Assembly (NCBI GenBank): GCA_031409655.1
Contig: JANNXQ010000203.1
Span: 1 to 17,687, forward strand
Length of the DNA: 17,687 nt
Direction of reading: 5' to 3'
Origin: Chthoniobacteraceae bacterium
Lineage (GTDB): Bacteria; Verrucomicrobiota; Verrucomicrobiia; Chthoniobacterales; Chthoniobacteraceae
Shown: in pieces, positions 1 to 16,647 of the stretch
Numbering within the stretch: position 1 is the first letter of the stretch
Layout of the letters: each line of letters opens with the position of its first letter
Notes under the pieces: model-generated
Seen by the model: the letters and a program-made list of their open reading frames with translations, nothing else
The model's database searches: none
What the model was told of the DNA's origin: nothing
Position numbers and translations under genes: made by a program

Positions 1-1774
1 CCGCGCGCGGCTCGCCGTAGAGCTTGCCGTTGCCATGCACGTCCACATCGAAGTGGCAGTCCACGCACTGCATGCCTTTGGCCAGATGGATGTCCTTGAG
101 ATGCACGGCTTGGGCGAACTTCTTCGGGTCGTCGTGCGGGATGATCTGGTCGTCCAGGTCGCGCAAAATGCCCTGGCGATCCTTCTTGAAGACCGCGCGG
201 AAGACCCAGCCGTGTCCGTGGTAATCCGCGAACTGCGTCTGCTTGAGCTGCGGGTTCAACTCGGAGACGCGTTCCAGAAAATCATTGTCGCCCCACTTGC
301 CGCGCGTGGCGGCCTCCTCGGGATTCTGGCGCAGCGCGGCCAGCCGTTCCGACTCGGTCGGGTTCTTCTGCTTCTTGGGATACATGAACTCGCCGTCGCT
401 TTCCTGATCCCACCAAGTGTAGCCGAGGTAGGGATTCACGAAGAGGTTGCCTTGGTGCATGTGACAATTCATGCACTGCGAACTCGGAATCGAGCGGGTG
501 AATTGATGGATGATCGGATGTCCACGCTCCGTCTTGGAAATGGTGGGATCCTTGGAAAAGCTCAGCCCTTGGTTGCCAAACTTGCACCACCAGCCGGAGT
601 TACTCGGCGAACGGTCATTGGCATAGACAACGTGGCAGGCGGTGCAGCCGCTCGATCGGTAATCGCCGGGGCGGTCGTTCGAACCCATGAAGCCGAGCAA
701 CGGATCGTGCAGCCGCGTTTTCTGGGCTCCGAGAAAGATCGGATCGGTGCGGTTCAGCGTTCCCAACCCGCGGGCGGAGAGCCGTCGTTCCGGGCGACCT
801 GGGGGCTCGTCGAGAGTGGGGACGCCAAGCACTAAAGGTTCGAAGCCGCCCTTTTCAAAGATTCGGAAGACGTTGCCCGGCTGGGCGACATTGAAGCGGG
901 GCAGGGGAACAAGCGCGGGCAGGATGCCGAGCGTGCGGGTTTCTTCCGCAGTCGGGACAAAGGGATTGTCGAGCCGCAGCGCGATCCCGTCCTGGCCATA
1001 GGCCTGGCCGACGATGGCGTCCTTCTTATTGATCGCGCCATTATTGTAGGCCGCGGCGTTCCAGAGCATCGCGCCGTGATTCATCATCGAGTGGCCGACC
1101 CGCTCGACGATGTCGCCATGGCACGCGCCGCACGCCTGCTCGGCGGCGCGCAGATCGCCCGGGTTCACGAAACGGATAAACTCGGGCGATTCGTGATTGA
1201 GCACCACGGTCGAATTCACGGGGTTCGCCGACGTGACCCAAAACTCAGGATTCAGCGGCTGGACGTGGGCTTTCGCGATCGAGAGGCCGCGCGCGGGATC
1301 CCCACCGTGACAGTCCGTGCAACCGAGGACTACCGCCGGAGAAGCATGCATGGTATGCGCGTCGGTGGTCGTATGGCAATCGATGCATCCCGCGCTCTTG
1401 CGCTGGGCCTCGGCGAACGGTTGGTCGATGAGGGTGTAAGGTGGACGTTGTCCAGTGGGTCGAGGCACTGGCACCGCGACCGGAGGTCCGAGCCCAGTGC
1501 CGATGAGGGTTTCCGGACCGGAACGGGATTTCCCGGGCAGGGGCAGCGGGGGATGAGACGCCGCTGGCGGCACGGCAATTTTCGGACCGGTTCCGGAGCC
1601 CGGTTTCGCCGCTGGCCCGGGTAACTTCGGATCGGGTATGGGCGCGGGGATCACGGTATTCTCTGGGACCGATGTCGGAGGACCGAGACCTCCCTCCACC
1701 TGCGCAAAAGCAGCGCCACCAAGCCACCAAGCAAGAAGGAAGGCCGCCCCCGCCTGAACAAGCAAGACTCTCAC
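1..1774 (-). CDS. Secreted multiheme c-type cytochrome (at least 6 CxxCH), 3' end beyond window edge
   Basis: Not in the ORF track (no stop in window). Manual translation from GTG 1774 gives [25 protein letters not shown] (Sec-like signal), a Pro-rich linker, then CIDCH (1373-1387), CTDCH (1307-1321), CGACH (1118-1132), CTACH (632-646), CMNCH (461-475) and [14 protein letters not shown] (motif 53-67). The frame stays open to position 2 (...[11 protein letters not shown]). Confidence 0.93.
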
Positions 1775-1775
1775 T

Positions 1776-4166
1776 TTAGTAGAGAAACGTAAGCGTGAAA
1801 AAGCCATTGTATAAGTAACGGTCAGTTTTACCGCGATCATCCTGATCGCCGAATCCCGGCACTGGCGCGGTGCTCCGGCGGTAGATGTCTTTGTATCCGT
1901 TGCCGGGGAAGAAGAAGCCGACGCCCGCAGAGACGATGATGTTATCCGTGAGCAGCGGTCGGAATTTGAAACCGACGCTGGCATCGAGCCCGAGATCGTG
2001 ACTGGCGCGATCCGTCATGAGCGCGACTTCCACGGGTTTCGTTTCGGCCAGCCAGATGTAGTTCACATTGAGAAACGCCTTCAGCTTCGGCGTCACATCG
2101 ATGTCCGAACCGATGCCGGCGATAAAGACTCCGGGATTGACGAAGTTGGACTGTCCTTCGGTCTTGCTGGTCCGCAGATTGGGCACGAGAGAGTCGCGCT
2201 GTTTCAAGTTCACCGCCGTGCCGCCAAAATTGATCCCCTCGTGGACGTACCAACTGAACGGCCCGCCGATGAAGAAGGGATTGTCGAGGATACTGTCGAA
2301 GCCGCGCGCGGTGCGATCGGTCGGATTGGAATCGCCGCTGGCGTAGAAGCCCGAAAGCTTGAAGCGAATCCAATCGCGATCGTAGCTGAGTTCGGCCGCC
2401 GCCATTTGCGCGTTGATATCCACCCGGCGCCCCGCCAGCGAGTTAAACTCGTCTTCGCCGAATACCTGGTAGAACGCATGGGTGATGTTCAGCCTCCCGA
2501 TGTGGCCGTCGCCGGTCCAGCCGAGATACGCCGCCTTGACATCGTGTCCCCGCAGCCGGCCTTGCTTGTCCACTGGGATCGTCCCGAGAATCTGCGGACG
2601 GGTGAGGAAGGTGTTCTTATCGTAGTGAACGCCCCCGTCATCGAGGTTCAGGTGGAAGTTCAGTTGCGCCGTGTAACCCTTCCAGATGAAGTCCTGGCGG
2701 AACACATTGGCGATCACTACCTGCTGTTTCCGGGAGTCGAGCATGTTCAGATCGGAGTAAGTGTCCTTCTCCCGCATGTTGAAATACGCGAGGTTGTATT
2801 GGACCCGGTTATTGTCGTAGTTGCCGAAAATCCGCGCCCCGAGATTGGTATCGGCAAAGATAAACCCGCGGAAATCCGAGACGAAGGGCTGGATCCCGAA
2901 ACGGGACGAGACAAAGTCGTAGTTGTCGGAAATATCGCCGAAGTGCAGTTCGCCGAACACTTCCTGCAGGGCGAAGAAATTCCGGTAGCGTTTCGTGTAA
3001 CGCAATCCGCTCCGGTCACCGTCACCTCCCTTGCCACTCCCCAGCTTCTTTCCCGCTGCGATTTCCTGGGTTCTGGGATCCACCTTGACCAATTCCCGCG
3101 CATCGCCAATCGGCCTCAACTGGTCGGCGAGGTAGTTGAAGGCGTCGCCGGGATTCACGTTGCTGGTGAAGAAGCCAGGATTTCCGGCCTGGGGAGAGAC
3201 GTTCCCTTGCACGGTCGGGATCGCTTGGATGCGTCCGGTGTTTGGCGCGCTCCGGTCCTTGAAGTCCACCCCGCGCGGGTCGGGATCGAGCAGGTTGTTT
3301 TCGCGCACGCGCGTCCAGTTGTTGTTATACACCGCATTCACGCGGATGAGCCAATGGACCGGTTTGAAGGCCGTCTCGCCCTGGAAGAGATCGAAAGCGA
3401 GAGAAGTGTCGTTGGAGACAAAGAACTGTTCGCCGCGCCCAAAGAACTCCGCGTTATTGGGCAGCGCGCCGCTCACGCCGCTGCCTACGGGCAGCTTGCG
3501 TCCCTCCACGAGGGTGAAGTTTTTCGCCGTAAGATTGAGGAAGATGTCCTGCCCGATGATGGGCACGTCGCCCTTCAGGGTGCTCTGCCGATACGGATGC
3601 CAGAGCAGCGGCGTGTCATACATGTAAGGCGTCTCGGTCGAGGGATCGCGATAGCGCTGCCAATGAGGGAAGGGCAGCAACCAGCGATTCGGCACCCCTT
3701 TCGCATTGGGCAGAAATCCGAGCCCCTCGCGCCCGAGCGGATAGGAGCGATAGGAAAAAGTCTTTCGCACCGGATCGAGTCCGAGCACCGCGTTGCGGGG
3801 GAGTCGCAGCTCCCTGGGGAGCCGCCGCGCGGCTTGGGGTGGTTGGAGCGGCACTTCCGGAAAAAGGTAAAGCTGGTCGGGATCCGTCGGCGGGTCAGAC
3901 GCCGGTGCAGCCGGCTGGTTCCATGCTCCCGGATCAGGATTGAACTGAGCCGGGGATTTTGGCGGCTCACTCTGTGGGGCAACTCGGGAGTCGGCTTCGT
4001 CCGGTGCGAAGAAGGGGCGAAGGATGGCCTTCGGCGGACGGAATCTCCCCCGCATTTCGGCCGCGCCAAAACAGTTTCCCGAGGCAAGCGTCGCCAAAAT
4101 CACTCCCGCGTAAAGCGGGCAGCGGCGACCGCAATGCACCGAGACGGGGTTCGCACCGAATTTCAT
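1776..4166 (-). CDS. Large predicted outer-membrane beta-barrel protein (porin-like), function unknown
   Basis: Long ORF (track 1776..4211); ATG 4166 or 4181 is a more plausible start. Hydrophobic signal-like stretch ([17 protein letters not shown]), Pro-rich N-terminal region, many alternating aromatic/hydrophobic strands (e.g. [34 protein letters not shown]) and C-terminus [11 protein letters not shown] ending in an aromatic residue like a BAM beta-signal. Confidence 0.82.
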
Positions 4167-4328
4167 GGCACGGGAATTCATACGTGCCCGCGCGGGTCCG
4201 CTACAATTCAAAACAGTGGACGAGGGCGCGTGGGTTTTGTCGGCGTCCGAGTGCGGCTTGCGGTGGCCCCAGGTCGGAGGTGACGGGCGCGCGGAGATTT
4301 CCTCTCTTTAATCGGGTGACTGCGGGAT

Positions 4329-4355
4329 TTGCTCGGGGCAAGATTCACCCATAAT
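4329..4355 (+). promoter_or_regulatory. Putative sigma70-type promoter for the Gfo/Idh/MocA gene (possibly leaderless)
   Basis: TTGCTC (4329-4334), 15 nt, CATAAT (4350-4355); ATG follows 6 nt later at 4362; no SD. Confidence 0.4.
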
Positions 4356-4361
4356 TTTCCG

Positions 4362-5666
4362 ATGGCCGTTCCTCCTATTTCCCGTCGTCGTTTTATCCAA
4401 AGCTCCAGTCGCGCGCTTGCGGCCGTGGGCGCGGCCTCTCTGGCAGTGGAGCGATCGGCGTTTGCCGCGGGTGGGGACAAGCTGAAGCTCGCGCTCATCG
4501 GCTGTGGTGGGCGCGGGAGGGGGGCGGCGGGGCAGGCGCTCTCGGCGGAGAAAGGCGTGGAACTCGTGGCCATGGCGGATCTTTTCCCGGCCCGCCTCGA
4601 GCTCAGCTTAAAGACCTTGAGTGCCGCCCATCCGGAGCAGATGGCGATCAGCGACTCGTCGAAGTTCATCGGCTTCGATGCGTACAAGGACGCGATCAAG
4701 ATGGCCGATGTCGTCGTGCTGACCACGCCGCCCGGCTTCCGCGCGATCCACTTTGAGGAAGCGGTGAAGCAGGGCAAACACGCCTTTCTCGAGAAGCCCG
4801 TAGCGGTCGATGCGCCGGGAGTGCGTCGCGTGCTCGCCGCCGCGGCGGAGGCGAAAAAGAAGGGGCTGAAAGTCGGCGTCGGTTTTCAGCGGCATCATCA
4901 GCCGGCGTATCACGAAGCCATGGAACTGGTGCGCGACGGCGCGATCGGCGATCTCACTTCCATGAGCGTTTACTGGCTTGGGAATGCCCGCGCTGGACTG
5001 CAGCGCGAACCCGGCGAGACCGAGATGCACTACCAGCTTCGCAACTGGTACTTCTTCACCTGGCTCTCTGGCGATCACATCGTCGAGCAGCACTGTCATA
5101 ATATCGACGCTGCGCTGTGGTTCAAAGGCGCGCACCCGGCGCGGGCTCAGGGCATGGGCGGGCGGCAGGTGCGCATTGGCAAGGAGCACGGCTGCATCTT
5201 CGATCATCATTTCGTGGAGTATGAATTTGACGACGGCATGAGGCTCTACAGCCAGAGTCGGCAGGGACAGGTGGGCGCCTTTTCCAAGATCGGCGAACGC
5301 ATCGAAGGGACCAAAGGCGTGCTCGATACCTCGCGCTTCACCATCACCGGTGCCAATCCCTGGCGCTACCGCGACGAAATCGGCGGCGCCAAAGACGCCT
5401 TTCAACTTGAGCACAACGACTTCTTCGCCGCGATCCGCGCGGACACCGATTACAATGAAGCGGAACGCAGCGCCATCAGCACGATGACGGCCATCATGGG
5501 TCGCATGGCGACATACTCGGGGAAGATGGTCGAATGGGACGAAGCCATGAAATCCCCCCTCGAACTCGGCCCTAAAGTTTTCTCCTGGGAAGCCGAGCCA
5601 CCCGTCCTGCCGGGTGCTGATGGCTTTTACCCCGTGGCCATCCCCGGACGCACCGTCGCACTCTGA
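4362..5666 (+). CDS. Tat-exported Gfo/Idh/MocA family NAD(P)-dependent oxidoreductase
   Basis: Twin-arginine signal SRRRFIQ...AFA; Rossmann motif LIGCGGRGRG; conserved EKP motif; DHIVEQHCHNID segment; start trimmed to ATG 4362. Confidence 0.92.
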   Translation: MAVPPISRRRFIQSSSRALAAVGAASLAVERSAFAAGGDKLKLALIGCGGRGRGAAGQALSAEKGVELVAMADLFPARLELSLKTLSAAHPEQMAISDSSKFIGFDAYKDAIKMADVVVLTTPPGFRAIHFEEAVKQGKHAFLEKPVAVDAPGVRRVLAAAAEAKKKGLKVGVGFQRHHQPAYHEAMELVRDGAIGDLTSMSVYWLGNARAGLQREPGETEMHYQLRNWYFFTWLSGDHIVEQHCHNIDAALWFKGAHPARAQGMGGRQVRIGKEHGCIFDHHFVEYEFDDGMRLYSQSRQGQVGAFSKIGERIEGTKGVLDTSRFTITGANPWRYRDEIGGAKDAFQLEHNDFFAAIRADTDYNEAERSAISTMTAIMGRMATYSGKMVEWDEAMKSPLELGPKVFSWEAEPPVLPGADGFYPVAIPGRTVAL

Positions 5667-6015
5667 AAAGGTCCGCTCCACTTTCCCGCCGGGCGTTTCT
5701 CCGCCAGAACGCGCTCGCTGCTGGTGGCCCAGTGACTCGGTCAGGCTCCGGGCTTCCCGCGGCGTTTTGAGAGCAGTAAGTGCGAACTCGTCCGTGACCC
5801 GCAGAAGCGGGCGCTGATCCGGCGGAGAAACCTGTCTTCAAGCCGCTTCCTGGCGCGGGCCTCGTGCAATCGAACGGCCTCATCTGCCACTCGAGTCCGG
5901 GGTGCGTGGGCTTTGGAAACATGTGGGGATCGCCATCCTCCCGGTCCCGATCGGCGTCTTTCACTGCTCGCGACCAGAGGTCGACGACCGCACAAAAAGA
6001 GAGTCGAGTAGGGTG

Positions 6016-7116
6016 ATGAGCGAACCCAAGACGAGCCAACCTGCCGTGCCAGCCGCGGGCGAATGGGGATCGCGTAGTCAGGTTCAGGTGCTCGTCCTGC
6101 TCGTGGCGACTGCCTTCGGGATCTTTGTCTGTTACAAGCTGGCCTTGCCCTTCTTGCCGCCGCTCGTCTGGTCGGCGGCGCTGGCGGTTTTGTTCGCGCC
6201 ATTCCACGGTTGGCTTCAGTCAAAGGTCCAGCACCCCGGCGCGGCGGCGGGCAGCGCCGTGCTGGTCGTGATTTTGATCGTCGCCGTGCCCGGAACGTTC
6301 GTGGGGCACCGGCTGATCACGGAGTCCGCGCGCGGTGCGGAGATCGTTCAGAAAAAGGTGGAATCGGGCGAGTGGCGGCAGGCGATCGAAGCGCAGCCGC
6401 GTCTCGCACCGCTCGCGGGCTGGATCGAAGAAAAAGTGGACCTGCCCGGGACGTTCCGCACTCTCGCCGCGTGGCTGGCTGCAATGGCCGGTTCAATCGT
6501 TCGCGGATCGGTCGTCCAGATCATCGGTTTCGCGCTGACCTTCTATCTCCTCTTCTATTTCCTGCGCGACCGCCGCGCGGCGCTCGGCTCGGTACGCTCG
6601 TTGTCGCCTTTGGCGCCGCTGGAAATGGACCGGCTCTTCGCACGCATCGGGGACACCATTTTTGCCACTGTGTATGGGACCTTCGCCGTCGCTGCCGTGC
6701 AGGGGCTGCTGGGTGGGCTGATGTTTTGGTGGCTCGGGCTGCCGACGCCGCTGCTTTGGGGAGTGGTCATGGGGCTTCTGGCCGTGGTGCCCGTGCTCGG
6801 CGCCTTTGTCGTGTGGATTCCCGCGGCCATCTTTCTCGCGCTGGAGGGCAGTTGGGGCAAAGGGATCATCCTCACGGTGTGGGGCGGAGTCGTCGTCGCA
6901 GGGATCGATAATGTGCTCTACCCGATGCTCGTCGGGAGTCGGCTCAAAATGCACACTGTCCTCGCCTTTATCTCTGTGGTCGGCGGGCTCATGCTTTTCG
7001 GCCCGTCCGGTCTCATCCTCGGACCCGTGGCGCTCACGATCACCGTGGAACTCCTGGCCATCTGGCGCCATCGCGCCGAACCCTCGTCCGACCGCCAGAG
7101 TGCCTCGCTCGTCTGA
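6016..7116 (+). CDS. AI-2E family (PerM/UPF0118) transporter
   Basis: Multi-TM protein with typical segments (LPFLPPLVWSAALAVLFAP, FYLLFYFLRD, VPVLGAFVVWIPA, DNVLYP...G, GGLMLFGPSGLILGP); start trimmed to ATG 6016. Confidence 0.9.
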   Translation: MSEPKTSQPAVPAAGEWGSRSQVQVLVLLVATAFGIFVCYKLALPFLPPLVWSAALAVLFAPFHGWLQSKVQHPGAAAGSAVLVVILIVAVPGTFVGHRLITESARGAEIVQKKVESGEWRQAIEAQPRLAPLAGWIEEKVDLPGTFRTLAAWLAAMAGSIVRGSVVQIIGFALTFYLLFYFLRDRRAALGSVRSLSPLAPLEMDRLFARIGDTIFATVYGTFAVAAVQGLLGGLMFWWLGLPTPLLWGVVMGLLAVVPVLGAFVVWIPAAIFLALEGSWGKGIILTVWGGVVVAGIDNVLYPMLVGSRLKMHTVLAFISVVGGLMLFGPSGLILGPVALTITVELLAIWRHRAEPSSDRQSASLV

Positions 7117-7140
7117 CGCGAAATGCCTTCACCGGGTTGC

Positions 7141-7168
7141 TTGACATGCGAGGTTCGACCGCTAGTCT
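7141..7168 (+). promoter_or_regulatory. sigma70-type promoter of rpsT
   Basis: Perfect TTGACA (7141-7146), 16 nt, TAGTCT (7163-7168), 34 nt upstream of the rpsT ATG. Confidence 0.65.
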
Positions 7169-7202
7169 CCGCGTTCCTTTTCCCGAACTACCTCCACTCC
7201 TC

Positions 7203-7466
7203 ATGGCCAATACCAAGTCCGCAGCCAAACGCGCCCGTCAGACGGTGCGCCGCACCAAAGCCAACAGCCCCGTGCTCACGGCGGTGAAGACGCAGCTCAA
7301 AAAAGTGCGGACGGCAATCAAGGCCGGCAAGAAGGACGAAGCCAAGGTTGCGGCACAGGAATTCATCTCGACGATCGACAAGGCCGTGAAGGGTGGACGC
7401 GTGCATCGGAACTCGGCGAACCGCCACAAGAGCACGATCAGCAAGGCTCTTTCCGGCCTGAACTAA
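7203..7466 (+). CDS. rpsT: 30S ribosomal protein S20
   Basis: MANTKSAAKRARQTVRRTKAN...IDKAVKGGRVHRNSANRHKS matches the S20 pattern; 87 aa, basic. Confidence 0.96.
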   Translation: MANTKSAAKRARQTVRRTKANSPVLTAVKTQLKKVRTAIKAGKKDEAKVAAQEFISTIDKAVKGGRVHRNSANRHKSTISKALSGLN

Positions 7467-7535
7467 GCGGAGTCCGGCTCCGGTGTGGGCGGGTGGTTTG
7501 CGGGCCCATTTTCAGGGCACTGCCAGGCCCTGACG

Positions 7536-7922
7536 TCAGGAGGGGCTCGCGACGTTCAGGTTTTCGTCGTTCCGAAAGTCGGCCGCGATCCGCGGATGTG
7601 AAAATTCCCGGAGAGAAGGTCTGATCTCGTCCGGGAATTCGAGAAAGAGGAGGGTGGTCTCGTGGCGCTGGGCGCCGGTCGGTTCGCACCAGACGACGAT
7701 GCCTTCCAGTTGCACGCGACTGAGGCCGAGGCGCGGATGCATGTGGAGCAGGGCGACGACGAGTTGGGTGCCGATGCTGAAGGTCCAGCGGGAGGTGAAG
7801 CGCAGGCCGCGCTCGGAGATTTCCACCTCGCCGAGGCCGCATTGCTGTTCATCGTCCACTTCGTCCAAATAGATCGAGGCGACGGGTGCGGGGGACGGGG
7901 TTTCGGTCGCTGGGTCTGGCAT
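7536..7922 (-). CDS. Small PilZ-like domain protein (degenerate)
   Basis: EISERGLRF resembles the (D/N)xSxxG motif, followed by PilZ-type strands (FSIGTQLVV, LEGIVVWC, TTLLF). No RxxxR motif. ATG 7922 lies just downstream of a good promoter. Confidence 0.6.
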   Translation of the reverse strand: MPDPATETPSPAPVASIYLDEVDDEQQCGLGEVEISERGLRFTSRWTFSIGTQLVVALLHMHPRLGLSRVQLEGIVVWCEPTGAQRHETTLLFLEFPDEIRPSLREFSHPRIAADFRNDENLNVASPS

Positions 7923-7939
7923 AATCCGGTGGGCCTCGA

Positions 7940-7967
7940 AAAGTAGCACTGGTCAATGGTGTGTCAA
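7940..7967 (-). promoter_or_regulatory. sigma70-type promoter (extended -10) for the PilZ-like gene
   Basis: Minus strand reads TTGACA (7967-7962), 16 nt ending in TGc, TACTTT (7945-7940); 17 nt before ATG 7922. Confidence 0.6.
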
Positions 7968-7995
7968 AAGGGTCGTGGCATTTCGCGGTCCGAAA

Positions 7996-8730
7996 CTAGA
8001 TGGCTTCGAGTGTCGTCGTTGCATTTGCAGAAGTCTCGGCTTCGGCGAGGAGGCGCAAGGCCAGCCGGGCGAGGAGCCCCGTGACGAGGAGCGAAAGGGC
8101 GAGCCCACCGATCCAGAGCGCATATTCCAAGGGCGCGGGATGCGACTGGCCGCGCGCGACCTTGATGCTGAATTGCGCGAGCGTGCCAAGGTAGGCGTAG
8201 AGGAAGAGGCCGGGGGCCTGCCCGAGTGCGACCCAGAGGAGGCAGACGGCGAAGCGGATGCGGGTGACGCCGTAGAGGTAGTTCAGCAGGCTGGAGGGAA
8301 AGAGCGGATGGACCTGACTGAGGAAGATGATCTTCCAGCCGTCGCGGGCGATGGCCTCGTCGAGGGTGGCCCATTTGCGCTGCCGCAGAAATTTCCGCGC
8401 GACCCAGCCGCGGCCGAGTTTGCGGGCGAGGAGGAAGGCGATGGCCGCACCGAGGACGTTGCCCGTGACATTCAAAAGGAAGCCCCACCAGAGCCCGAAG
8501 AAAAGGCCGCTGCCGATGGCGAGCACGCCGCCGGGGAGGAGGAGGACATTGCACGTGGCGGAGAGCAGTGGGTAAAGCACGCCGCCCCAGAGTTGCATGG
8601 CGCAGAGTTGCTCCTGGGCGCGCGCGACGTAGTCGAGGATGGGGAAACGATGCCAGAGCCACGCGGCGAAGATGGCGGCGAAGCCCAGGCCGCAAAGTTG
8701 GACAGTGAGGGCGCGTTTGACCTGAGACAT
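7996..8730 (-). CDS. TVP38/TMEM64 (VTT/DedA superfamily) membrane protein
   Basis: LLLPGGVLAIGSGLFFGLWWG, GNVLGAAIAFLLARKLGR and HPLFPSSLLNYLYGVTRI match the family pattern. The start ATG overlaps the upstream stop (TGATG at 8728-8732). Confidence 0.88.
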   Translation of the reverse strand: MSQVKRALTVQLCGLGFAAIFAAWLWHRFPILDYVARAQEQLCAMQLWGGVLYPLLSATCNVLLLPGGVLAIGSGLFFGLWWGFLLNVTGNVLGAAIAFLLARKLGRGWVARKFLRQRKWATLDEAIARDGWKIIFLSQVHPLFPSSLLNYLYGVTRIRFAVCLLWVALGQAPGLFLYAYLGTLAQFSIKVARGQSHPAPLEYALWIGGLALSLLVTGLLARLALRLLAEAETSANATTTLEAI

Positions 8731-9581
8731 CAAACGGGAGCGTCGCCGCCGAGGGCCGCGCCGAGTGCGGCGAGGTGGGCCGGGCCGACCCCGCAGCAAC
8801 CACCGAGCAAGTGGACGCCACGCTCGATGAGGCGGACGCTGGCAGTGGCGAATTCCTCAGGGGCCAGTGGATAGACGAGCCTGCCGGCGTTTGCGCGCGG
8901 CAGACCGGCGCTCGGGAAGACGGAGATCGGGCCGGGGTCGGTAGTGGTCGCGAGCGCGGTGAAGGCGGCGTGCGGGTCGAGGCAATTGCTGCCGACGACG
9001 TCCGCGTCCCCGGCGCGGAGACGCGTCCAGGCGACGGCGAGCGTGGTGCCATCCGGCAGGCGGCCAGCGGCGTCGCAGGCGAGCGACGTGATCACGGGGC
9101 AGTGATGCAGGGAATGCTTCATCTCGAGCGCGATGAGCAGTTCATCGAGGTCGGTGAAAGTTTCGAGGACGATGAGCTGCGCGCCGCCATCGAGCAGCGC
9201 GCCGATCTGCTCGGTGAAAATCGCCGCACGATCCAGCTCGGCGGTGCCGGGACCGAGCGGGCCGACACAGCCGGCCACGTAAACGCCTTTGCCCCGGGCG
9301 CAGTCGCGCGCGAGTTGGGCCGCGGTCCAGTTGATTTCACCCACGCGATTTTCGAAGCCGTGCGCCGCGAGTCGATGGGCGTTCGCGCCGAAGGAATTCG
9401 TCCGGAGCACCCGCGCCCCGGCAGCGATCGAGGCAGCGTGGACCGCCTGGACTCGCTCCTGCGCGCTCACGCAGAGCTCCTCCAGACACGCGTCGCGAGG
9501 CACGCCAGCGGCGAGGAGTTCCGTGCCCATCGCGCCATCGGCGAGCAGCGGGTGGTCTTGCAGTTCATCGAGGAAAGCCAT
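8730..9581 (-). CDS. Homocysteine S-methyltransferase family protein (standalone Hcy-binding Zn domain)
   Basis: LADGAMGTEL, AGARVLRTNSFGAN, LETFTDLDEL, Zn-ligand motifs GSNC and GGCCG. 283 aa from ATG 9581, with no fused MTHFR or pterin domain. Confidence 0.9.
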   Translation of the reverse strand: MAFLDELQDHPLLADGAMGTELLAAGVPRDACLEELCVSAQERVQAVHAASIAAGARVLRTNSFGANAHRLAAHGFENRVGEINWTAAQLARDCARGKGVYVAGCVGPLGPGTAELDRAAIFTEQIGALLDGGAQLIVLETFTDLDELLIALEMKHSLHHCPVITSLACDAAGRLPDGTTLAVAWTRLRAGDADVVGSNCLDPHAAFTALATTTDPGPISVFPSAGLPRANAGRLVYPLAPEEFATASVRLIERGVHLLGGCCGVGPAHLAALGAALGGDAPV

Positions 9582-9646
9582 CGTCCCGCGGAGTCTTCGG
9601 TGCCGCGCGGAGGCTGACGAGGAAAAGATTCCGCCGGTGCGCCCGC

Positions 9647-9674
9647 TTGCATTCCACTTCTCCTCCGACACACT
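9647..9674 (+). promoter_or_regulatory. Putative promoter for the lipoprotein operon (possibly leaderless)
   Basis: TTGCAT (9647-9652), 16 nt, CACACT (9669-9674); ATG 7 nt later at 9682. Confidence 0.4.
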
Positions 9675-9681
9675 CGCGCAC

Positions 9682-10506
9682 ATGAAAATCCTGCCCCGGC
9701 TGCTCACCCTCGCTGCCTTCGTCCCCGCGCTCTTTCTCGCGGGCTGCTTCCAAATCGATGCCGTGGTGAAAGTGAAACCGGACGGCTCCGGGACCATCGA
9801 GCAGAAGATGATGCTCGGGGGCGAAGTGGTCGCGCAGATGAAGTCGATGGCGCAGGCTTTCGGCGGCGACAAGAACGCGAAGGGCACGGAGATCTACGAC
9901 GAGGCCAAGCTCAAGGCGCAGGCGGCCGAGATGGGCGAAGGGGTGACTTTCGTCTCCGGAAAAAAGGCCGCGGAGGCAGATGGGAGCGAGGGTTACACGG
10001 CGATCTACGCCTTCACCGATATCAGCAAAGTGAAGCTCAAGACGTCGCCTTCGTCGTTCGGCGCGCCAGGTGGCATGGCGATGAAGACGAGCAGCAAAGA
10101 GCCACCGGTGACTTTTCAATTTACCAAAGGCAAGCCGGCGGAACTGACGGTCATCACGCAGCGGCCCAAGCCCGATGCGGCGAAGAAAAAGGAGGCCGGC
10201 CCTTCCCCCGAAGACGCGGCGCAGGACGCGATGCTGCCGATGATGCAGCAGATGATGAAAGGCATGCGGATGAATGTGGCCATCGAAGTCGTGGGGAAAA
10301 TCACCGAGACGAATGCGCAGTGGCGCGAGGGTTCGCGGGTCACGATGATGGACGTGGAGATGAACAAGCTCATGGCCGATCCCGTGAAATTTAAGGCGAT
10401 GACGAAGATCAAGGAGCCAAACTCGCCGGAAGCGAAGGCGCTGCTCGCCGGGGTGCCGGGGATCAAGGTGGAACTGGCGGATACCGTGAAGATCAAGTTT
10501 CAGTAA
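9682..10506 (+). CDS. Lipoprotein of unknown function
   Basis: MKILPRLLTLAAFVPALFLAG|C with an LAGC lipobox; VKVKPDGSGT after the Cys recalls LppM-like lipoproteins; Met/Lys-rich with strong coding codon bias. Confidence 0.82.
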   Translation: MKILPRLLTLAAFVPALFLAGCFQIDAVVKVKPDGSGTIEQKMMLGGEVVAQMKSMAQAFGGDKNAKGTEIYDEAKLKAQAAEMGEGVTFVSGKKAAEADGSEGYTAIYAFTDISKVKLKTSPSSFGAPGGMAMKTSSKEPPVTFQFTKGKPAELTVITQRPKPDAAKKKEAGPSPEDAAQDAMLPMMQQMMKGMRMNVAIEVVGKITETNAQWREGSRVTMMDVEMNKLMADPVKFKAMTKIKEPNSPEAKALLAGVPGIKVELADTVKIKFQ

Positions 10507-10518
10507 GCCCCCGTCCGG

Positions 10519-11682
10519 ATGAAATCCCTCGACGCCAAGATCGCTGAAATCCGCAAGAACCCATCCGGGAGCAAGGCTTTCATCATCGCGGATGCGAAGG
10601 ATGCGGACATGGCCTTTGGCATCACCGCGCCGGGGAGCAAACGCCCGCTGAATCCCGAGCGCGTCCTGAAGTCGGAGATCCACTGGAAGACGCTCGAGGA
10701 ATACCGCGAGCAGATCCGCGCCGTGGTCCAGCAGGGGCTCGTGGACATCATGCTGATGTCGGCGTCGAATGTGGAGCAGCTCGCCACGCGGGAGCGGCTC
10801 TTTGCCGATTCGCACATTACCCCGGCGGCGCGCGCGAATGACGCGACAGACATCTGGGTCGTCCGCGGCGCGGAGTACATCAAGGAAGCATCGCGGCCAT
10901 TCCGCAGCGCGACCATCGACCACATTAAGTGCGGCGCACTCGCCTGCGCTGACGATGCTCCCGCGACGGGTGCGGACCTCGGGCTCTATTCGGTCACCTT
11001 CACGAACAACTTCGACCGCGACTACGAAACGCTCTGCGCCTTCAAGGAATTCCGCGAAGAGGCCGAGCGGAAAAACTTCCGCTACTTCCTCGAGGTCTTC
11101 GATCCAAACGTGGACACGGGCCTGGCACCCGAGGCGCTCGATGGCTTCATCAATGATCACATCATCCGCAGTCTCGCTGGCGTGACCGAGAAAGGGCGCC
11201 CGCTCTTCCTGAAGATCGCGTGGCGGGGGCCGCGGGCCATGGAAGAGCTCGTCGCCTACGATCCGCAGCTCGTCGTCGGCATCCTCGGCGGCAGCGCCGG
11301 GACGACTTACGATGCCTTCAAGCTCATCGCCGATGCGCAGAAACACGGCGCGCGGGTGGCGCTCTTCGGCCGCAAGATCAATCACGCGGAACAGCCGCTC
11401 GCTTTCATCGAGATGCTGCGGCGCATCGTGGAAGGCGCGATCACGCCGGAGGAGGCGGTGAAGGCGTATCACGGCGTTTTGCAATCGCTGGGTATCCAGC
11501 CGCATCGTCCGCTCGCGGAAGATCAGAAGCTCACGTCTGGCGCGACGAGCTACGGCGGGTCCAGCGGCGCGCGCACGACGATCGTCAAATCCGACGGCGC
11601 ACCCGCGTCCGCGGAGGCCAAGCCTGCGACCAGCCGCGTGGCGGAGCATCTCGCGCGAATCCGCGAGCGCTTCGGCGAGTAA
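10519..11682 (+). CDS. Conserved hypothetical protein, probable class I aldolase-like TIM barrel
   Basis: 387 aa with repeating beta/alpha units: YFLEVF, LFLKIAWRG (candidate Schiff-base Lys), VGILGGS, GARVALFGRKI. The order resembles DhnA/LacD-type aldolases. 12 nt downstream of the lipoprotein gene. Confidence 0.62.
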   Translation: MKSLDAKIAEIRKNPSGSKAFIIADAKDADMAFGITAPGSKRPLNPERVLKSEIHWKTLEEYREQIRAVVQQGLVDIMLMSASNVEQLATRERLFADSHITPAARANDATDIWVVRGAEYIKEASRPFRSATIDHIKCGALACADDAPATGADLGLYSVTFTNNFDRDYETLCAFKEFREEAERKNFRYFLEVFDPNVDTGLAPEALDGFINDHIIRSLAGVTEKGRPLFLKIAWRGPRAMEELVAYDPQLVVGILGGSAGTTYDAFKLIADAQKHGARVALFGRKINHAEQPLAFIEMLRRIVEGAITPEEAVKAYHGVLQSLGIQPHRPLAEDQKLTSGATSYGGSSGARTTIVKSDGAPASAEAKPATSRVAEHLARIRERFGE

Positions 11683-11710
11683 CCGTGCCGTGCGGAATCA
11701 GCGGCGCGCT

Positions 11711-11738
11711 TTGACTTCACCGCGCGCGCTCTTACGCT
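11711..11738 (+). promoter_or_regulatory. sigma70-type promoter for the DUF4870-type gene
   Basis: TTGACT (11711-11716), 16 nt, TACGCT (11733-11738); 13 nt before ATG 11752. Confidence 0.55.
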
Positions 11739-11751
11739 TTGATCCTCCACC

Positions 11752-12183
11752 ATGACCGATCCCGAAGTCCCAGCACCCGCTCCCGTTTCACCGCCCGTCC
11801 CCGGGCCGGGGAGCGGCATCCCCCGGCACGTGGCCGCTGGTCTTGCGCTGCTGGTGCCCTTGGTCGGAGGCGTCGTTTTTCTGGTGATCGAAAAGGAGGA
11901 CAAATTCGTCCGCTTTAACGCCATGCAGTCCGTCTTTCTCGGCGGACTCCTCCTGGCCGTGTCGCTGGGACTCGGGCTCGCCGAGTTGATTTTCCGTCAG
12001 GTGCCCTTCGTCGGCTGGCTGGTAGCGCTCGGATTTATGGCCGCCAATCTGGTCTTCTCGCTCTGGTGGCTGGTCGTCTGGCTGATCGCGACGGTGAAGG
12101 CCTTTACCGAAAAGGAGTGGGAAGTGCCCGTGCTCGGAGCCCTCGCCCGGAAGCAACTCGGCGAACCGCCTGCGGTTACCTAA
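11752..12183 (+). CDS. DUF4870/Tic20-like small membrane protein
   Basis: AAGLALLVPLVGGVVFLVIEKEDKFVRFNAMQS...VPFVGWL...KAFTEKEWEVPVLG is typical of this family; three hydrophobic segments. Confidence 0.8.
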   Translation: MTDPEVPAPAPVSPPVPGPGSGIPRHVAAGLALLVPLVGGVVFLVIEKEDKFVRFNAMQSVFLGGLLLAVSLGLGLAELIFRQVPFVGWLVALGFMAANLVFSLWWLVVWLIATVKAFTEKEWEVPVLGALARKQLGEPPAVT

Positions 12184-12236
12184 AGCGGCCGACAAAAAGC
12201 CTTTCCGGCGGCGCATGGGCTGCCGAGGGCGGGAAC

Positions 12237-12346
12237 AAAGCGGCGCGAGGACGCGCCGCACTCCAAAGCGCTTCGCGCGAAAGAAACCGGACGCCTCGTT
12301 TTGCGGCGCAGCCGCTTTGGCGTGCGGCGCGTCCCCGCGCCGCTTT
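12237..12346. repeat. REP-like inverted doublet (34-bp arms, each itself a palindrome)
   Basis: Arm 12237-12270 and the reverse complement of 12313-12346 match at 32/34. Each arm has the hairpin GCGGCGCG-4nt-CGCGCCGC. Lies between convergent genes. Confidence 0.88.
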
Positions 12347-12384
12347 CTTCACGCACCGATCCAGGATCAATTTTTGCAGACGCT

Positions 12385-13281
12385 CTAACCGGACGCCATC
12401 CGGGCTAGCTTGGTGACTAAGGATGCGACGTCCGTCGAGGCAATGACCTTCACCGGTTCCAGCGAGGGCTCGCGACGGAACCACGTCATCTGGCGTTTCG
12501 CGTAGCGCCGCGTGGCTTGCTGGATCGCGGTGCTGCACTCGGCTCGCGTGATCTCACCAGCCAGCAGCGCGCGGATCTCGCGGAGGCCGAGCACTTGTTC
12601 TGCGGTCGGTCCGAGTTTGCCCACGCGCTCCACCTCGTCGATCACGCCGTCTGCAAACATCGCTTCGGTTCGCGCGGCGATGCGGTCGTGAAGTTCGGCC
12701 CGGTCGCGGGTGAGCACGACGCCGCACCTTTCATTGTCCGACGCCGTCCATTGCTCGCGGAAGCTTGAGAAAGGTTTCCCGGTGAGGAGGCACACCTCCA
12801 GGGCGCGGATGACGCGGCGCGGGTTTTTGAGATCGATCTGTGCGGTCGAGACTGGGTCGAGTTCGGTCAGGCGTCGTTGGAGTTCCGTCAGCGGTAGTGG
12901 CTCGAGATCGCTGCGCAAAGCGGCGTCCGCGGGAGGAAGTTCGGCGAGGCCGCGGGTGAGCGCGCGGAGATAGAGTCCAGTGCCACCGCAGACAATCGGC
13001 ACGCGGCCCCGCGCGTGAATTTCCGCGATCCGCTGCCGAGCGGCGGCCAGGTACTGCGCCACATCGAAGGCTTGGGTGAGCGGCACTTCACCGAGCAAGT
13101 GATGGGGAATCAGGTTGCGCAGTTCCGCAGACGGCTTCGCGGTGAGCAGGTCGAGGCCGGCGTAGATTTGGAACGCATCCGCGCCGACGATCTCGCCGCC
13201 GCACTCCTGCGCGACCGCGACGGCGATCTCGGATTTTCCGACCGCCGTGGGGCCGGCGATGATGAAGAAAGGGCGAAGCAT
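12385..13281 (-). CDS. miaA: tRNA (adenosine(37)-N6)-dimethylallyltransferase
   Basis: P-loop IAGPTAVGKS, DAFQIYAGLDLLTAKP, CGGTGLYL, NPRRVIRALEV, TRRYAKRQMTWFR. Confidence 0.96.
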   Translation of the reverse strand: MLRPFFIIAGPTAVGKSEIAVAVAQECGGEIVGADAFQIYAGLDLLTAKPSAELRNLIPHHLLGEVPLTQAFDVAQYLAAARQRIAEIHARGRVPIVCGGTGLYLRALTRGLAELPPADAALRSDLEPLPLTELQRRLTELDPVSTAQIDLKNPRRVIRALEVCLLTGKPFSSFREQWTASDNERCGVVLTRDRAELHDRIAARTEAMFADGVIDEVERVGKLGPTAEQVLGLREIRALLAGEITRAECSTAIQQATRRYAKRQMTWFRREPSLEPVKVIASTDVASLVTKLARMASG

Positions 13282-13343
13282 GGAGGCGCGTTGGAAGTTG
13301 GAGCAAACGCCTTTGCAGGTCGAGGAGCCGGAGTGTTCGGCGC

Positions 13344-13378
13344 AAAATAAAGAGGCTCACCGTTTCCGGTGAGCCTCT
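13344..13378 (-). terminator. Intrinsic terminator downstream of the RRM protein gene
   Basis: Minus strand: perfect 12-bp stem AGAGGCTCACCG-GAAA-CGGTGAGCCTCT followed by TTATTTT. Confidence 0.88.
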
Positions 13379-13411
13379 CGATTTGAAGGTGGGCGATTTT
13401 TGCCGGAGCGA

Positions 13412-13927
13412 TTAGTAGCCGCCCGTCTTTGCGCCGCTGACGACGAGCTTGCGGCCCATGAAGTCCTTGTCGTGCAACTCGGTGACCGCGCGTTTCGCTT
13501 CTTCGGTCGTGGTCATGGTCACAAAGCCAAACCCCTTCGATTTATCGGAGTCCTTGTGGGTGACGATCTCGGCGTTGGTCACTGCTCCGACGCCGTTGAA
13601 GAGTTCGGACAGATCGTTCTCCGTGGTGCTGTAGCTGAGGTTGCCCACGTAGAGTTTCGGTGAGGTGACTTCGACGTTCTCGGGCTTTCGGGCTTGGCGC
13701 GAGGAGCGGCCATCGTCCGCCGATTGACGCGAGCGGTTCGCCTCCGCTTGAGGATACGAACCGTTTGCTGGCTGACTCTTCGGTTTGAAAAACGCGACGA
13801 TTTTCTGCCAGAGAGACTGCGGCTCTGGGGGACGCTGCGGGGCGCGTGGGGCGTCGCGCCGATCGCGGGATTGGGGTCGGCGTCCGCCACGACGGCGGTC
13901 CGAGCCCCGGGATTCTTGGGATCTCAT
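13412..13927 (-). CDS. RRM-domain RNA-binding protein with Arg-rich N-terminal extension
   Basis: RNP2 LYVGNL and RNP1 KGFGFVTM in the C-terminal ~80 aa; the N-terminal ~85 aa are low-complexity and R/G/P/S-rich; strong terminator downstream. Confidence 0.92.
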   Translation of the reverse strand: MRSQESRGSDRRRGGRRPQSRDRRDAPRAPQRPPEPQSLWQKIVAFFKPKSQPANGSYPQAEANRSRQSADDGRSSRQARKPENVEVTSPKLYVGNLSYSTTENDLSELFNGVGAVTNAEIVTHKDSDKSKGFGFVTMTTTEEAKRAVTELHDKDFMGRKLVVSGAKTGGY

Positions 13928-14355
13928 TTTGGTATGCTTTCGAGTTGTAGGTTGCTGCGTGGCTGGCGAAGCGCACGGTGCGTGCAGGGTTCCTCTCGCG
14001 ACCCCCGGTGGCCCGCTGCGGGCCGAGACCGGTCGGGGTCGTTTTCGGAAAACTTCGCCGGGTGGAGCAGGGGACGCCGCTGGGATGGCGCCTCCCTCCG
14101 AGCCGCCCGGAACGTGCGGGACTAAGGCACCGCGCCGCCGGGACGAGGGAACCGAGCAGGAGTAAGAAGGAGAAGAATCTACTCATGAACGGATCACTGG
14201 CTGAGGGGTTGACAAGCGGACCGGAAGCCCATGGAAAACCCTGCTGCCGCGTGGGAGCTAAGCCACGGGGGTTGGTTCGGCAAGATGAAACTTCGGCCAG
14301 GTGAAGGAAATGCGGGGCGCCCGCGGGAAACGAGGTCTGCCGAGGAAGGCGCATT

Positions 14356-16554
14356 TCAGCACAGGCCCCAGCGTCGGCGCAGGTACCAATCCGATCCGAA
14401 AAGGAGGCCGATCGACCAAAAGATCCACCAGCGATCCCAGGCGCTGGTGAGCTTGGTCATCGGTTCCGCGGGGATTTCCTGGCTCTTGAGTTCTTTGAGC
14501 AGGCCGCCGAGTTCGCCGGGGGTGAGCAGGCGCCCGCCGCTCGCCTCGCACAGCTTCTTCAGGTAGCTGGCGTCGGTGGCGACTTCCGTTTGCTCGAGAT
14601 TTTCGTCGAAGACGATGAAGCGCACGCTCTGCTTGGTGCCGTCGAGGAACTCCGCTGTGGCGGTGAATTTGCCCGCCTTTTCGCCGACAAACTCCGCGGC
14701 GAGTTTGCCCGGTTCGGTGGCGCTGAGCGTCGTGCGGAAGGTCTCGCCGCCGCTGTTTTGTACGACCAGTGGGACGTCGCCCGAGATCGGCGGAGTGCCA
14801 TGCTGCAGCACACGAAAGTAGATTTTTTCCCCGAGCGGGATATTCGCCGAGCTGCTGCGGAGCGCGAATTTCTGGGCGGGTTGAAAGTCTCGACCGGCCA
14901 TGAGCCAGAGGATCATCTGATCCCAGAAACGATCGAAGACGGTGTTCGCGCCTTCCACCTTTGCATTGAATGCCCAGCGCCAGAGGCCATCCACGCCCAC
15001 GCTCAGCACCTGCCCGTCGCCGAAGCGCCGATGCACCATGCCGGGCATCGGCTCGCCGCCGCTCGTGCTTTGCGCGCTGGCCAGGGTGGCGGTGAGCGGT
15101 TTCTTGGCGAGAGCGGGATAGCCGGCGATCAGGTCCGGCACGGCGTCCGGTCCGGCCTGCTCCTGGATCGTGCGGAAAGGCGCGAGCGCCTGACCTTCGC
15201 GACCGACTTGCAGCCTAACATGTTCGGTGGGTGTGGTGGACCAGATCACGGGTTCGAGATCGTTCTTCGCCAGCCCGCCGCCGAAAGCCGGGCCGCGCGC
15301 GAAGATCACGGTGCCCCCTTGATCTTTCACATAACTCTCGAGCCGCCGCAGATCCTCGATGCCGAGCAGACTTTCGATCGAGCGCCCGAGCACCACGACA
15401 TCGTAGCGCCGCCAATCTTCGACGCTTGCGGGAATCTTCAGCTCCTTTTCCCCGGCCTTTTTGCGGATCAGGCGCGCCTTCCCTTTCGCGTATTGCACGA
15501 TGCTATCCACGTTCATCTTGTCGTTCCGCAGCAGCGAGCGGGAGAGAAAGGTGGTGTCCCAGTAGGGTGCGCCTTCGAGGAAGAGCACCTGGATTTGCTG
15601 GTCGATGACGTTGAGGAAAGTGAGCGCGTGGTTGTTTTCGTGATTCACTTCGCGGTCCAGCGGCACGACGCGAATCTCGTACTCAAATTGCCCGACGACT
15701 GGCTCGATGACCTCGAAGTTCACCGCGACCTCGGTCTCCTCCCCCGCGGAAACCTTTTTGGTCTGCACGACCTTCTCGCCGCGGAGCAATTCCACGGTCA
15801 GCGTTTCGAGTTCGCAGCCGATCAGGCGCAGGGCAGCGGCGATCCGCGCCTTTTGCTTTACGTAAGTGTAGGGCTGGTAACTGGTGATCCGCGCCGAGAC
15901 GTCGCGCACTTTGCCCTGCCGGCCGAGCGGCACGGCGAAGATGGGTGTGCCTCGCGAGCGAGCGACGAAGCCGGTCTTCGCGGGATTCACGAGTTCAAAG
16001 TCGTGGCCATCGCTCAGCAGGACGAGGGCGCGGGCGGTCTCGTCCGCGCGGAGTGAGCCGAGCATCGTGGAGACGCTGCGGTGGACGCGGGTCGAGGCGC
16101 CCTCGGCATCCAGCGTCGCGAGCGTCGTGAGCGGCGCGGCGTCTTCGGAGAATTTGAACAAACGGAGGCTGCCTTCAGCGGGCGAGCCGTCGGGCGCGGT
16201 GAACTCGGCGTCGGCGAGGATGGAGCGCGCTTCGTCTGAGCGCGTGCCTTGAGCGACGTCGCGCTGTGCCATGCTTTTGGAATCGTCGATGCCGATGAGA
16301 GTCACGCGGCTGGCCGCGGGCGGGGGCACTTCCTCCTGCCGCGAAGGCTGCAAGAGCAGCAGCAGCACCAGTGCGACCCCGGCGCTGCGCAGGACGAGGA
16401 GAGTCGTGCTCTGCGCCGCGCTCAGCCGCGCGCCGGTGCGGCGATACACCGCAAAAGTGAGCGCGAGCAAAACGAGTCCGAGGATCGTGACAGCGCCGAT
16501 CGGCAGGATCGGATCGAGAACGAGGCTCGGGTTCGCCACTGGGAGGGGAGTCAT
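14356..16554 (-). CDS. Membrane-anchored VWA-like / Ig-like / GATase1-like multidomain protein
   Basis: Two N-terminal TM helices; MIDAS-like IDDSKSM and LVLLSDG; beta-rich middle; VLFLEGAPYWD...YDVVVLG...YVKDQGGTVIF class I amidotransferase-like fold; C-terminal TM ending DWYLRRRWGLC. Confidence 0.78.
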   Translation of the reverse strand: MTPLPVANPSLVLDPILPIGAVTILGLVLLALTFAVYRRTGARLSAAQSTTLLVLRSAGVALVLLLLLQPSRQEEVPPPAASRVTLIGIDDSKSMAQRDVAQGTRSDEARSILADAEFTAPDGSPAEGSLRLFKFSEDAAPLTTLATLDAEGASTRVHRSVSTMLGSLRADETARALVLLSDGHDFELVNPAKTGFVARSRGTPIFAVPLGRQGKVRDVSARITSYQPYTYVKQKARIAAALRLIGCELETLTVELLRGEKVVQTKKVSAGEETEVAVNFEVIEPVVGQFEYEIRVVPLDREVNHENNHALTFLNVIDQQIQVLFLEGAPYWDTTFLSRSLLRNDKMNVDSIVQYAKGKARLIRKKAGEKELKIPASVEDWRRYDVVVLGRSIESLLGIEDLRRLESYVKDQGGTVIFARGPAFGGGLAKNDLEPVIWSTTPTEHVRLQVGREGQALAPFRTIQEQAGPDAVPDLIAGYPALAKKPLTATLASAQSTSGGEPMPGMVHRRFGDGQVLSVGVDGLWRWAFNAKVEGANTVFDRFWDQMILWLMAGRDFQPAQKFALRSSSANIPLGEKIYFRVLQHGTPPISGDVPLVVQNSGGETFRTTLSATEPGKLAAEFVGEKAGKFTATAEFLDGTKQSVRFIVFDENLEQTEVATDASYLKKLCEASGGRLLTPGELGGLLKELKSQEIPAEPMTKLTSAWDRWWIFWSIGLLFGSDWYLRRRWGLC

Positions 16555-16647
16555 GCCGGTTCGGTGTGCGGCGCCATGTCAGCGAAGATTCCGACATTCC
16601 CCAAACACTAAATGGCCTCATCGAGGAGTTTGCGCGCGGGCAGAAAC

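Follow-up and report, generated by a model that had tools for sequence, protein, structure and literature searches.

The locus described here lies at the end of a contig of a Chthoniobacteraceae bacterium (assembly GCA_031409655.1, contig JANNXQ010000203.1, hereafter C203) and comprises a gene for a predicted outer-membrane β-barrel followed by a gene for a multiheme cytochrome c. The window, that is, the whole stretch of 17,687 nucleotides that was analysed, is the start of C203, window position 1 being the first base of the contig, and the bin that holds it amounts to 6.85 Mb, is 94.9% complete and 5.3% contaminated. A Verrucomicrobiota host had been guessed in a preliminary description of this DNA, and the nearest named homologues, which belong to the Chthoniobacteraceae/Chthoniobacterales, agree with it. 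The features on which the analysis turns are the following.

Positions 1776 to 4166, minus strand: predicted outer-membrane β-barrel gene, open reading frame from ATG 4166 (796 aa).
Positions 1772 to 1778, minus strand: stop-start junction TAA-A-GTG, as read from the open reading frames.
Positions 1 to 1774, minus strand: decaheme cytochrome c/LVIVD β-propeller fusion, N-terminal 591 aa with hemes 1 to 6, cut by the contig end.

The preliminary description had placed the barrel stop one nucleotide before the GTG of a signal-peptide-bearing protein with at least six CxxCH motifs that continues past the edge, and both observations hold. The stop TAA occupies 1778-1776 and is followed by one A at 1775 and by GTG 1774-1772, an arrangement that suggests translational coupling of the two genes; in 32 of 58 related loci the gap between the stop and the first start ranges from -4 to +13 nt. 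The cytochrome frame stays open from GTG 1774 to the window edge, and it is only because it runs off the contig end that the gene was invisible in the list of open reading frames. The barrel frame has alternative starts at TTG 4211 and 4181, giving a length of 796-811 aa, and other in-frame ATGs for the cytochrome are found at 1807 and 1984; the cytochrome start is unproven, GTG 1774 being preferred because the hydrophobic N-terminus, the only hydrophobic stretch of the protein and one as expected for a signal peptide, fits it. The six CxxCH motifs lie at aa 130, 152, 215, 377, 434 and 570, against a mean of 0.011 and a maximum of 2 in 20,000 shuffles. A contig from a public run covers 1053-4400 with one difference from the window, and the barrel-cytochrome junction is therefore bridged; four runs of one freshwater-sediment study contain at least half of the window stretch and may include the source sample, and no RNA runs holding it were listed. 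A promoter scan of the locus found nothing, and terminator-like sites were close to shuffle level.

The barrel-cytochrome pair is inherited together across three bacterial phyla. Conserved adjacency had been named as a check in the preliminary description, and among 79 related loci the cytochrome is directly downstream of the barrel in 60, there is room for it without adjacency in 13, and the locus ends early in 6. Counted by genome, the two genes are almost never found apart: of 121 genomes of the family, 60 carry the barrel and 58 the cytochrome, all 58 lying within those 60, and the cytochrome is present in none of the other 61. Both genes occur in the same 7 of 301 genomes of the phylum sample, in the same 18 of 151 Acidobacteriota genomes, all adjacent, and in the same 13 plasmid or chromid records of Sphingobium/Sphingopyxis; many cultured sphingomonads carry the cytochrome. 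Co-occurrence also holds where the genes are unlinked, as in genus g169, in which many genomes have the pair on different contigs. In some Chthoniobacteraceae, separated loci with both genes kept were seen at L010, L011, L013, L014 and L016 as well as in the g169 genomes, and frameshifted or stop-containing copies of the barrel or the cytochrome, which may be long-read errors, at G403:C3:166177-168163, L056 and L072. Congruence between the two protein trees (33 of 43 splits shared in 46 pairs, with at most 3 in shuffles) was dropped as evidence of co-evolution, because shared host descent explains it.

The upstream protein had been taken for an outer-membrane barrel, and its AlphaFold2 model supports this assignment, with 18 long strands and a mean predicted local distance difference test score (pLDDT) of 83. 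The closest fold match of the model is AlgE (Z 25.8, root-mean-square deviation (rmsd) 2.9, 369 residues aligned), followed by Occ channels (Z 22-24.5), MOMP and chitoporin, and MtrB is absent among the fold matches listed; the protein is predicted to be an 18-strand outer-membrane channel of the AlgE/Occ-type fold. Its layout consists of a signal peptide, a Pro-rich linker, a conserved N-terminal segment, the barrel and a C-terminal aromatic residue (..FTLTFLY). No Pfam or NCBIfam match over cut-off was obtained, a single-sequence search of the PDB gave nothing at E up to 1, a profile search of the PDB returned one irrelevant match, and a neighbour in the Atlas, at 0.95, contains 21% PF13372 members. 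The family is large: of 7,997 candidates that were scored, 3,731 matched, and grouping at 50% identity gives 1,477 clusters. The most conserved parts, with loops numbered according to our reading of the strand order, are the short loops 3 and 4, a 70-residue loop 7 that is present in 95% of the alignment rows, and eight Arg/Lys residues; in AlgE and the Occ channels loop 7 folds into the pore. Conserved acidic residues lie on periplasmic turns (D299 and D374), and the N-terminal segment keeps R43, K80 and D82.

Full-length relatives of the cytochrome measure about 1,300 aa and contain ten conserved heme motifs and a seven-bladed LVIVD propeller. Of 120 aligned homologues, drawn from Verrucomicrobiota, Acidobacteriota and Sphingomonadales, every one retains nine of the heme sites and 117 retain the first; a nine-heme form in Acidobacteriota was considered and rejected, since site 3 is CX4CH in many members of that phylum. 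Twelve additional His residues are conserved at 93% or more, enough to supply distal ligands for ten hemes and leave two spare. The heme region holds one heme per ~73 aa, and invariant residues are equally dense between the hemes and elsewhere. The AlphaFold2 model of a close homologue, computed without hemes, has a pLDDT of 74 and places the propeller, with seven blades, at residues 748-1135 (1l0q, Z 28.2, rmsd 2.1 over 273). Segments 180-244 and 600-711 are poorly modelled and yet the most conserved, with 29% and 27% near-invariant positions; the former, of 65 residues, has 19 such positions and is unstructured in the monomer model. This is as expected for regions that may depend on heme or on a partner for their structure. 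The window cytochrome has no Pfam or NCBIfam match over cut-off, no PDB match in a single-sequence search at E up to 1, and no lipobox that could be seen. With a profile, the PDB yielded octaheme nitrite reductase (E 8e-4), NrfA (E above 0.1) and nothing else; whole-protein fold searches returned propellers only, and an Atlas search with the heme domain only generic multiheme clusters.

About 310 codons of the host copy, which would carry hemes 7-10, appear to be unassembled, and their content is taken from relatives. The end of contig C100 carries a C-terminal LVIVD region, and its depth in runs X1-X4 (14.5, 8-10, 3-5 and 2.5-3.5) matches that of the exact window contig (about 13-15, 8-16, 4-8 and 3-5); it is therefore probably the C-terminus of the host's own cytochrome, contig depth being a coarse measure. 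An 87%-identical copy with ten CxxCH on C42 (1-2586, locus L002), a contig that shows 84% identity in the overlap, was rejected as the continuation: it agrees with variant contigs at 36 of the 37 sites listed, the depth of those contigs (about 3, 5, 3 and 11-14) varies independently of the window copy, and it likely belongs to a co-binned relative. The bin has second copies of the cytochrome and DUF336 genes (C42:1-2586; C195 end versus C244 start; 84-90% nucleotide identity), and the same-genus genome G323 has two barrel-cytochrome-DUF336 sets. Directly 3' of the cytochrome C-terminal part, at L001:13980-14120, lies a repeat of very high contig depth that looks REP-type, and beyond it are two giant FG-GAP repeat proteins and a haemagglutinin-like gene.

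Several further genes accompany the pair. A secreted tandem DUF336/HbpS protein is encoded near the barrel in 53 of the 79 loci, within 2.5 kb upstream in 50 of them; the other neighbours are a membrane-anchored decaheme cytochrome (22 loci), a membrane protein (21), an iron-sulfur (Fe-S) protein with two cyclic nucleotide monophosphate (cNMP)-binding domains (17), a c554-like cytochrome (15), a NuoEF-like flavoprotein (8) and a CHASE2 cyclase (7). Across the 121 family genomes, the HbpS-repeat protein is found in 57 of the 60 with the barrel and in 1 of the 61 others, and the membrane-anchored decaheme in 58 and 4, respectively. In G535 a single run of six genes, all in the same direction, comprises those for the barrel, the cytochrome, the c554-like cytochrome, the cNMP/Fe-S protein, the membrane protein and the decaheme, and Sphingobium herbicidovorans has the full set plus cyclase, phosphoesterase, CHAT and ShlB genes. 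The host bin holds all parts, on C203/C100, C244 (with a second partial copy on C195, 89% identical) and C28, and cytochrome c assembly genes are present in it. The inner-membrane protein, whose host copy is on C244, has two WX3HX13H motifs in 21 of 21 sequences and SGXXG in 20 of 21; the c554-like cytochrome has 3-4 CxxCH and the membrane-anchored decaheme 10. The domains of the cNMP/Fe-S protein were assigned by Pfam on host C28, L009, L077 and L079, and in Sphingobium by annotation and sequence. Its NAD(P)H input is NuoEF-like in Verrucomicrobiota and Acidobacteriota, or a fused FAD/NAD(P) domain in Sphingobium. The second domain of the DUF336 protein aligns with EfgA, and Lys, Ser and Asp are kept at the ligand-pocket positions K57/S114/D121 if a 20-residue tag offset is assumed; the Ser-Asp motif is found in 44 of 51 sequences and the strict Lys motif in 28. 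Examples of this protein are L003:1-1620 and L009:6866-9439, and some copies have a C-terminal FG-GAP propeller. The cyclase beside the cluster, an adenylate/guanylate cyclase with a CHASE2 domain, was seen in three phyla (L005, L009, L019, L048, L073-L075, L083 and L086), and CHAT/TPR and two-partner-secretion genes recur on host C28, on C100 and in Sphingobium.

Co-folding of the two proteins had been proposed in the preliminary description, and it gave weak support. Barrel residues 36-678, paired with the heme region's first 355 residues (hemes 1-5), scored 0.32, the separate runs giving 0.60, 0.31 and 0.32 and the best of three controls 0.00; the runs share at least 28% of contacts, the partner pLDDT is at least 65 and the interface was not given. 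Among 157 solved complexes 116 attain the mark applied, and among 215 mismatches 2 do so, but at values up to 0.60 these are only 18 of the 157 solved complexes and both mismatches. Direct binding of barrel and cytochrome is nevertheless judged likely, because a strong genomic prior adds to this weak support.

Known porin-cytochrome systems resemble the pair in part. As in MtrCAB, MtoAB and PioAB, an outer-membrane barrel adjoins a secreted decaheme cytochrome. The impression that neither protein is like MtrA or MtrB was nonetheless correct: MtrB has 26 strands and MtoB/PioB 24-32 predicted strands versus 18 here, PF11854 (the MtrB-family barrel) has no match in the host genome (95% complete), and TIGR03508 (compact decaheme) none in the window cytochrome or one full-length homologue. 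The MtrAB-type cytochrome is compact, with ~33 aa per heme in MtrA by the available part of its description (PMC5566968), whereas the present one is heme-sparse and propeller-fused. PCC3 differs in having periplasmic and extracellular cytochromes with medians of 21 and 34 hemes; no open reading frame with more than 10 CxxCH was found in the host genome or the clustered families of the 79 loci. In Geobacter OmbB-OmaB-OmcB the periplasmic octaheme and outer-membrane dodecaheme set both heme counts and architecture apart.

The inner half of the system matches PCC4 (PMC5566968) and ptdC-G (10.1101/2023.11.21.568154) by domain content, as far as the accessible portions of these descriptions go: the membrane protein with a WX3HX13H pair and SGXXG is present here, as are, by heme count only, the tetraheme and decaheme periplasmic cytochromes. 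The paired His motifs of the PCC4 membrane protein have been linked to ferric-reductase-type b hemes in the part of PMC5566968 at hand. Judged from their descriptions, PCC4 and Ptd would be the same cluster, and both are given as uncharacterised in the sections available (PMC5566968; 10.1101/2023.11.21.568154). The outer half differs, since PtdA is described in those sections as a pentaheme with a C-terminal β-sandwich beside the porin, whereas the porin neighbour here has ten hemes and a seven-bladed propeller, and by description the place of PtdA is taken by the ~1,300-aa decaheme-propeller and the tandem DUF336 protein. The cytochrome profile gave no match at E up to 1 to PDB 5ZE8, which we take to be a PtdA homologue, and searching plasmids for PCC4/Ptd loci by means of the membrane protein, the decaheme and the cNMP protein returned only Sphingobium copies of the present system or nothing relevant. 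The Ferrigenium straubiae FHA-nonaheme (NHC) cluster (10.64898/2026.01.22.701106; Table S6 of PMC5566968) shares the inner module, which in the available account consists of a membrane-anchored nona/decaheme, a five-helix membrane protein and a 4Fe-4S protein (10.64898/2026.01.22.701106); no porin or propeller-cytochrome is described with it there.

Whether the pair is of the same type as a published Verrucomicrobia porin cluster had been left open, and the heme counts do not fit. The Trout Bog porin-multiheme clusters (PMC5615132, PMC6344600) come from the same phyla and have a porin adjoining multihemes; in the parts of the descriptions available the porin has at least 20 strands and its partners are a 7-8-heme periplasmic and often a 9-heme extracellular cytochrome, against 18 strands and ten hemes plus propeller here, a comparison of counts only. 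The Table S2 rows listed for that cluster (PMC6344600) likewise give 7- and 9-heme neighbours. The peat extracellular electron transfer clusters EET1-4 (10.64898/2026.05.27.727921), again from the same phyla and with a porin adjoining multihemes, are set apart by being described as OmcE/MtrA/MtrC/OcwA-like. No propeller is mentioned in the accessible text on the Trout Bog and peat clusters, nor in that of PMC11475568 and 10.1101/2025.05.29.656830. The Tenderiales uet cluster was rejected as the same system for its different architecture. AlgE and OprD (Occ) share the predicted 18-strand fold at about 11-13% identity; PF13372 (alginate export) has no barrel match over cut-off, the only one in the genome being on C127, and no polysaccharide genes lie near the barrel.

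As the preliminary description had supposed, no match to a characterised complex was found, nor was any published description of a barrel-decaheme-propeller pair in the literature searched, which lacks most subscription papers. Its proposal of a distinct system stands for the outer half, which matches none of those compared, and less so for the inner half, which through PCC4/Ptd is less isolated than had been suggested. By descriptions the pair is set apart from PCC4/Ptd, Trout Bog and peat EET, while being of the porin-cytochrome kind and closest to PCC4/Ptd.

From gene content, co-inheritance and motifs, and with predicted folds, we infer the order and direction of electron flow, binding and catalysis in a trans-envelope reductive chain whose last member is a multiheme enzyme in the periplasm, docked on a selective channel; this reading is preferred tentatively, with a little more doubt than belief. 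NAD(P)H would enter via the NuoEF-like flavoprotein or the fused FAD/NAD(P) domain, and electrons would then pass through the Fe-S protein with two cNMP-binding domains and cross the inner membrane via the protein with two WX3HX13H motifs, likely with two b hemes. The membrane-anchored decaheme and the c554-like cytochrome would hand them to the decaheme-propeller, the putative terminal enzyme under the channel. The substrate that this enzyme would reduce is small and probably anionic, and the barrel would let it in or present it; the tandem DUF336 protein, also secreted, may serve the enzyme by binding heme or a small ligand. That two unrelated NAD(P)H inputs serve the same cNMP/Fe-S protein, together with the paired-His membrane protein, argues for export from NAD(P)H. 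An enzyme under a channel is favoured over a wire in a sheath because of the small barrel, the sparse hemes, the conserved inserts, the spare His residues, the propeller and the ligand-binding partner. A functional analogue may be found in the Geobacter extHIJKLMNOPQS cluster, in whose available description the small porin ExtI is proposed to admit selenite/tellurite and is accompanied by multihemes and an inner-membrane cytochrome b (PMC5877670). That cluster also has a rhodanese, a Rieske protein and a selenocysteine cytochrome, none of them present here, and in the part at hand lacks the propeller found here; the ExtM equivalog NF040943 scored 44.8 and 66.4 bits, far below its cut-off of 800.

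Several points weigh against this chain. The genomes are kin and not independent, and the co-occurrence counts therefore overstate; the nitrite-reductase match, over ~50 residues, may reflect generic similarity between heme pairs; the cytochrome lacks a catalytic motif (no CxxCK) and offers no hint of its substrate; large parts of its heme domain model have pLDDT < 50; a co-folding pass of this kind is more often wrong than right unless binding is likely beforehand; the partner genes are on other contigs in this genome (C244, C195, C28); and many soil Chthoniobacterales loci have only the barrel, cytochrome and HbpS-repeat genes within 10 kb.

The preliminary description had suggested either an electron conduit or an outer-membrane-coupled periplasmic redox system, of which the latter fits best. 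An extracellular conduit of a new build, with part of the cytochrome inserted in the barrel or the whole protein held at the surface and with humics, metal oxides or other cells as acceptors, is the main rival and rather unlikely. It would agree with a barrel that adjoins a multiheme protein, with a complete carrier chain to the inner membrane, with hosts that include soil, peat and sediment bacteria, and with the conserved unstructured segment 180-244, which could enter the pore and belongs to the half that co-folded with weak support; but 18 strands are few beside MtrB and MtoB/PioB, and the sparse hemes, the propeller and the lack of a visible lipobox speak for a different arrangement. The system is moreover common in Sphingomonadales, a group of aerobes for which metal respiration is not known.

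A sensory or regulatory redox relay, coupling an outside redox or ligand cue to cyclic-nucleotide signalling and two-partner secretion with little net flux, is distinctly unlikely. The two cNMP-binding domains of the Fe-S protein would suit it, as would the CHASE2 cyclase beside the cluster in 7 of the 79 loci and also at L083 and L086, the CHAT/TPR, ShlB, haemagglutinin-like and phosphoesterase neighbours, a weakly matching FHA domain on the Sphingobium decaheme, and the DUF336 relatives HbpS and EfgA, sensors according to the available part of PMC8153426. With over 20 hemes in each system, however, such a relay would be costly as a sensor, the cyclase adjoins the cluster in only a minority of loci, and the dedicated NADH-binding input subunits point to flux. 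Inward flow, in which the propeller-cytochrome would oxidise a substrate entering via the barrel and pass electrons to quinone or NAD+, is proposed for PCC4 and the Ferrigenium nonaheme cluster in the accessible parts of PMC5566968 and 10.64898/2026.01.22.701106; here it is very unlikely, as ferric-reductase-type membrane domains normally export electrons and the hosts are heterotrophs.

The extended form of the reductive chain, in which gating by cyclic nucleotides is added so that a line from NAD(P)H to the outer membrane ends in a new class of multiheme-propeller enzyme clamped to its own selective porin, is rather unlikely. If true, soil and freshwater aerobic heterotrophs, including half of the sampled Chthoniobacteraceae, one in eight Acidobacteriota and many sphingomonads, would have signal-controlled reduction at or just inside the cell surface. 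On the side of inward flow it may be added that heme c/propeller enzymes are often dehydrogenases, against which stands that NAD+ reduction from c-type hemes is uphill at the usual potentials.

Abundant lineages of soil and fresh water commonly carry the pair, yet for neither protein is there a family model, a solved relative at the sequence level or a paper that was found. Automated surveys would score the pair as extracellular electron transfer, whereas its build suggests another role. It also ties together the uncharacterised PCC4/Ptd and NHC clusters, which may belong to a single modular family whose inner half is shared and whose outer ends can be exchanged. Cultured, non-pathogenic Sphingobium carries complete copies, and the function is therefore directly testable.

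Two further genes of the window were assigned by Pfam.

Positions 4329 to 5666, plus strand: Gfo/Idh/MocA oxidoreductase with a Tat-like signal, divergent from the barrel gene.
Positions 5902-7116: AI-2E family transporter.

The first occupies the site where most relatives carry the tandem DUF336/HbpS gene, and neither is a conserved neighbour of the barrel. By eye only, 7137-17687 holds a housekeeping context with ribosomal protein S20, a DedA/TVP38-like protein, a homocysteine S-methyltransferase-like protein, miaA, an RRM protein, a vWA-type membrane protein and the end of an ABC-F ATPase. Further multihemes in the bin are an 8-heme TPR protein (C242:11685-13994), a 9-heme secreted protein (C296:9796-12249) and a 5-heme protein (C235:62344-63075), the last of which looks like ActA of alternative complex III.

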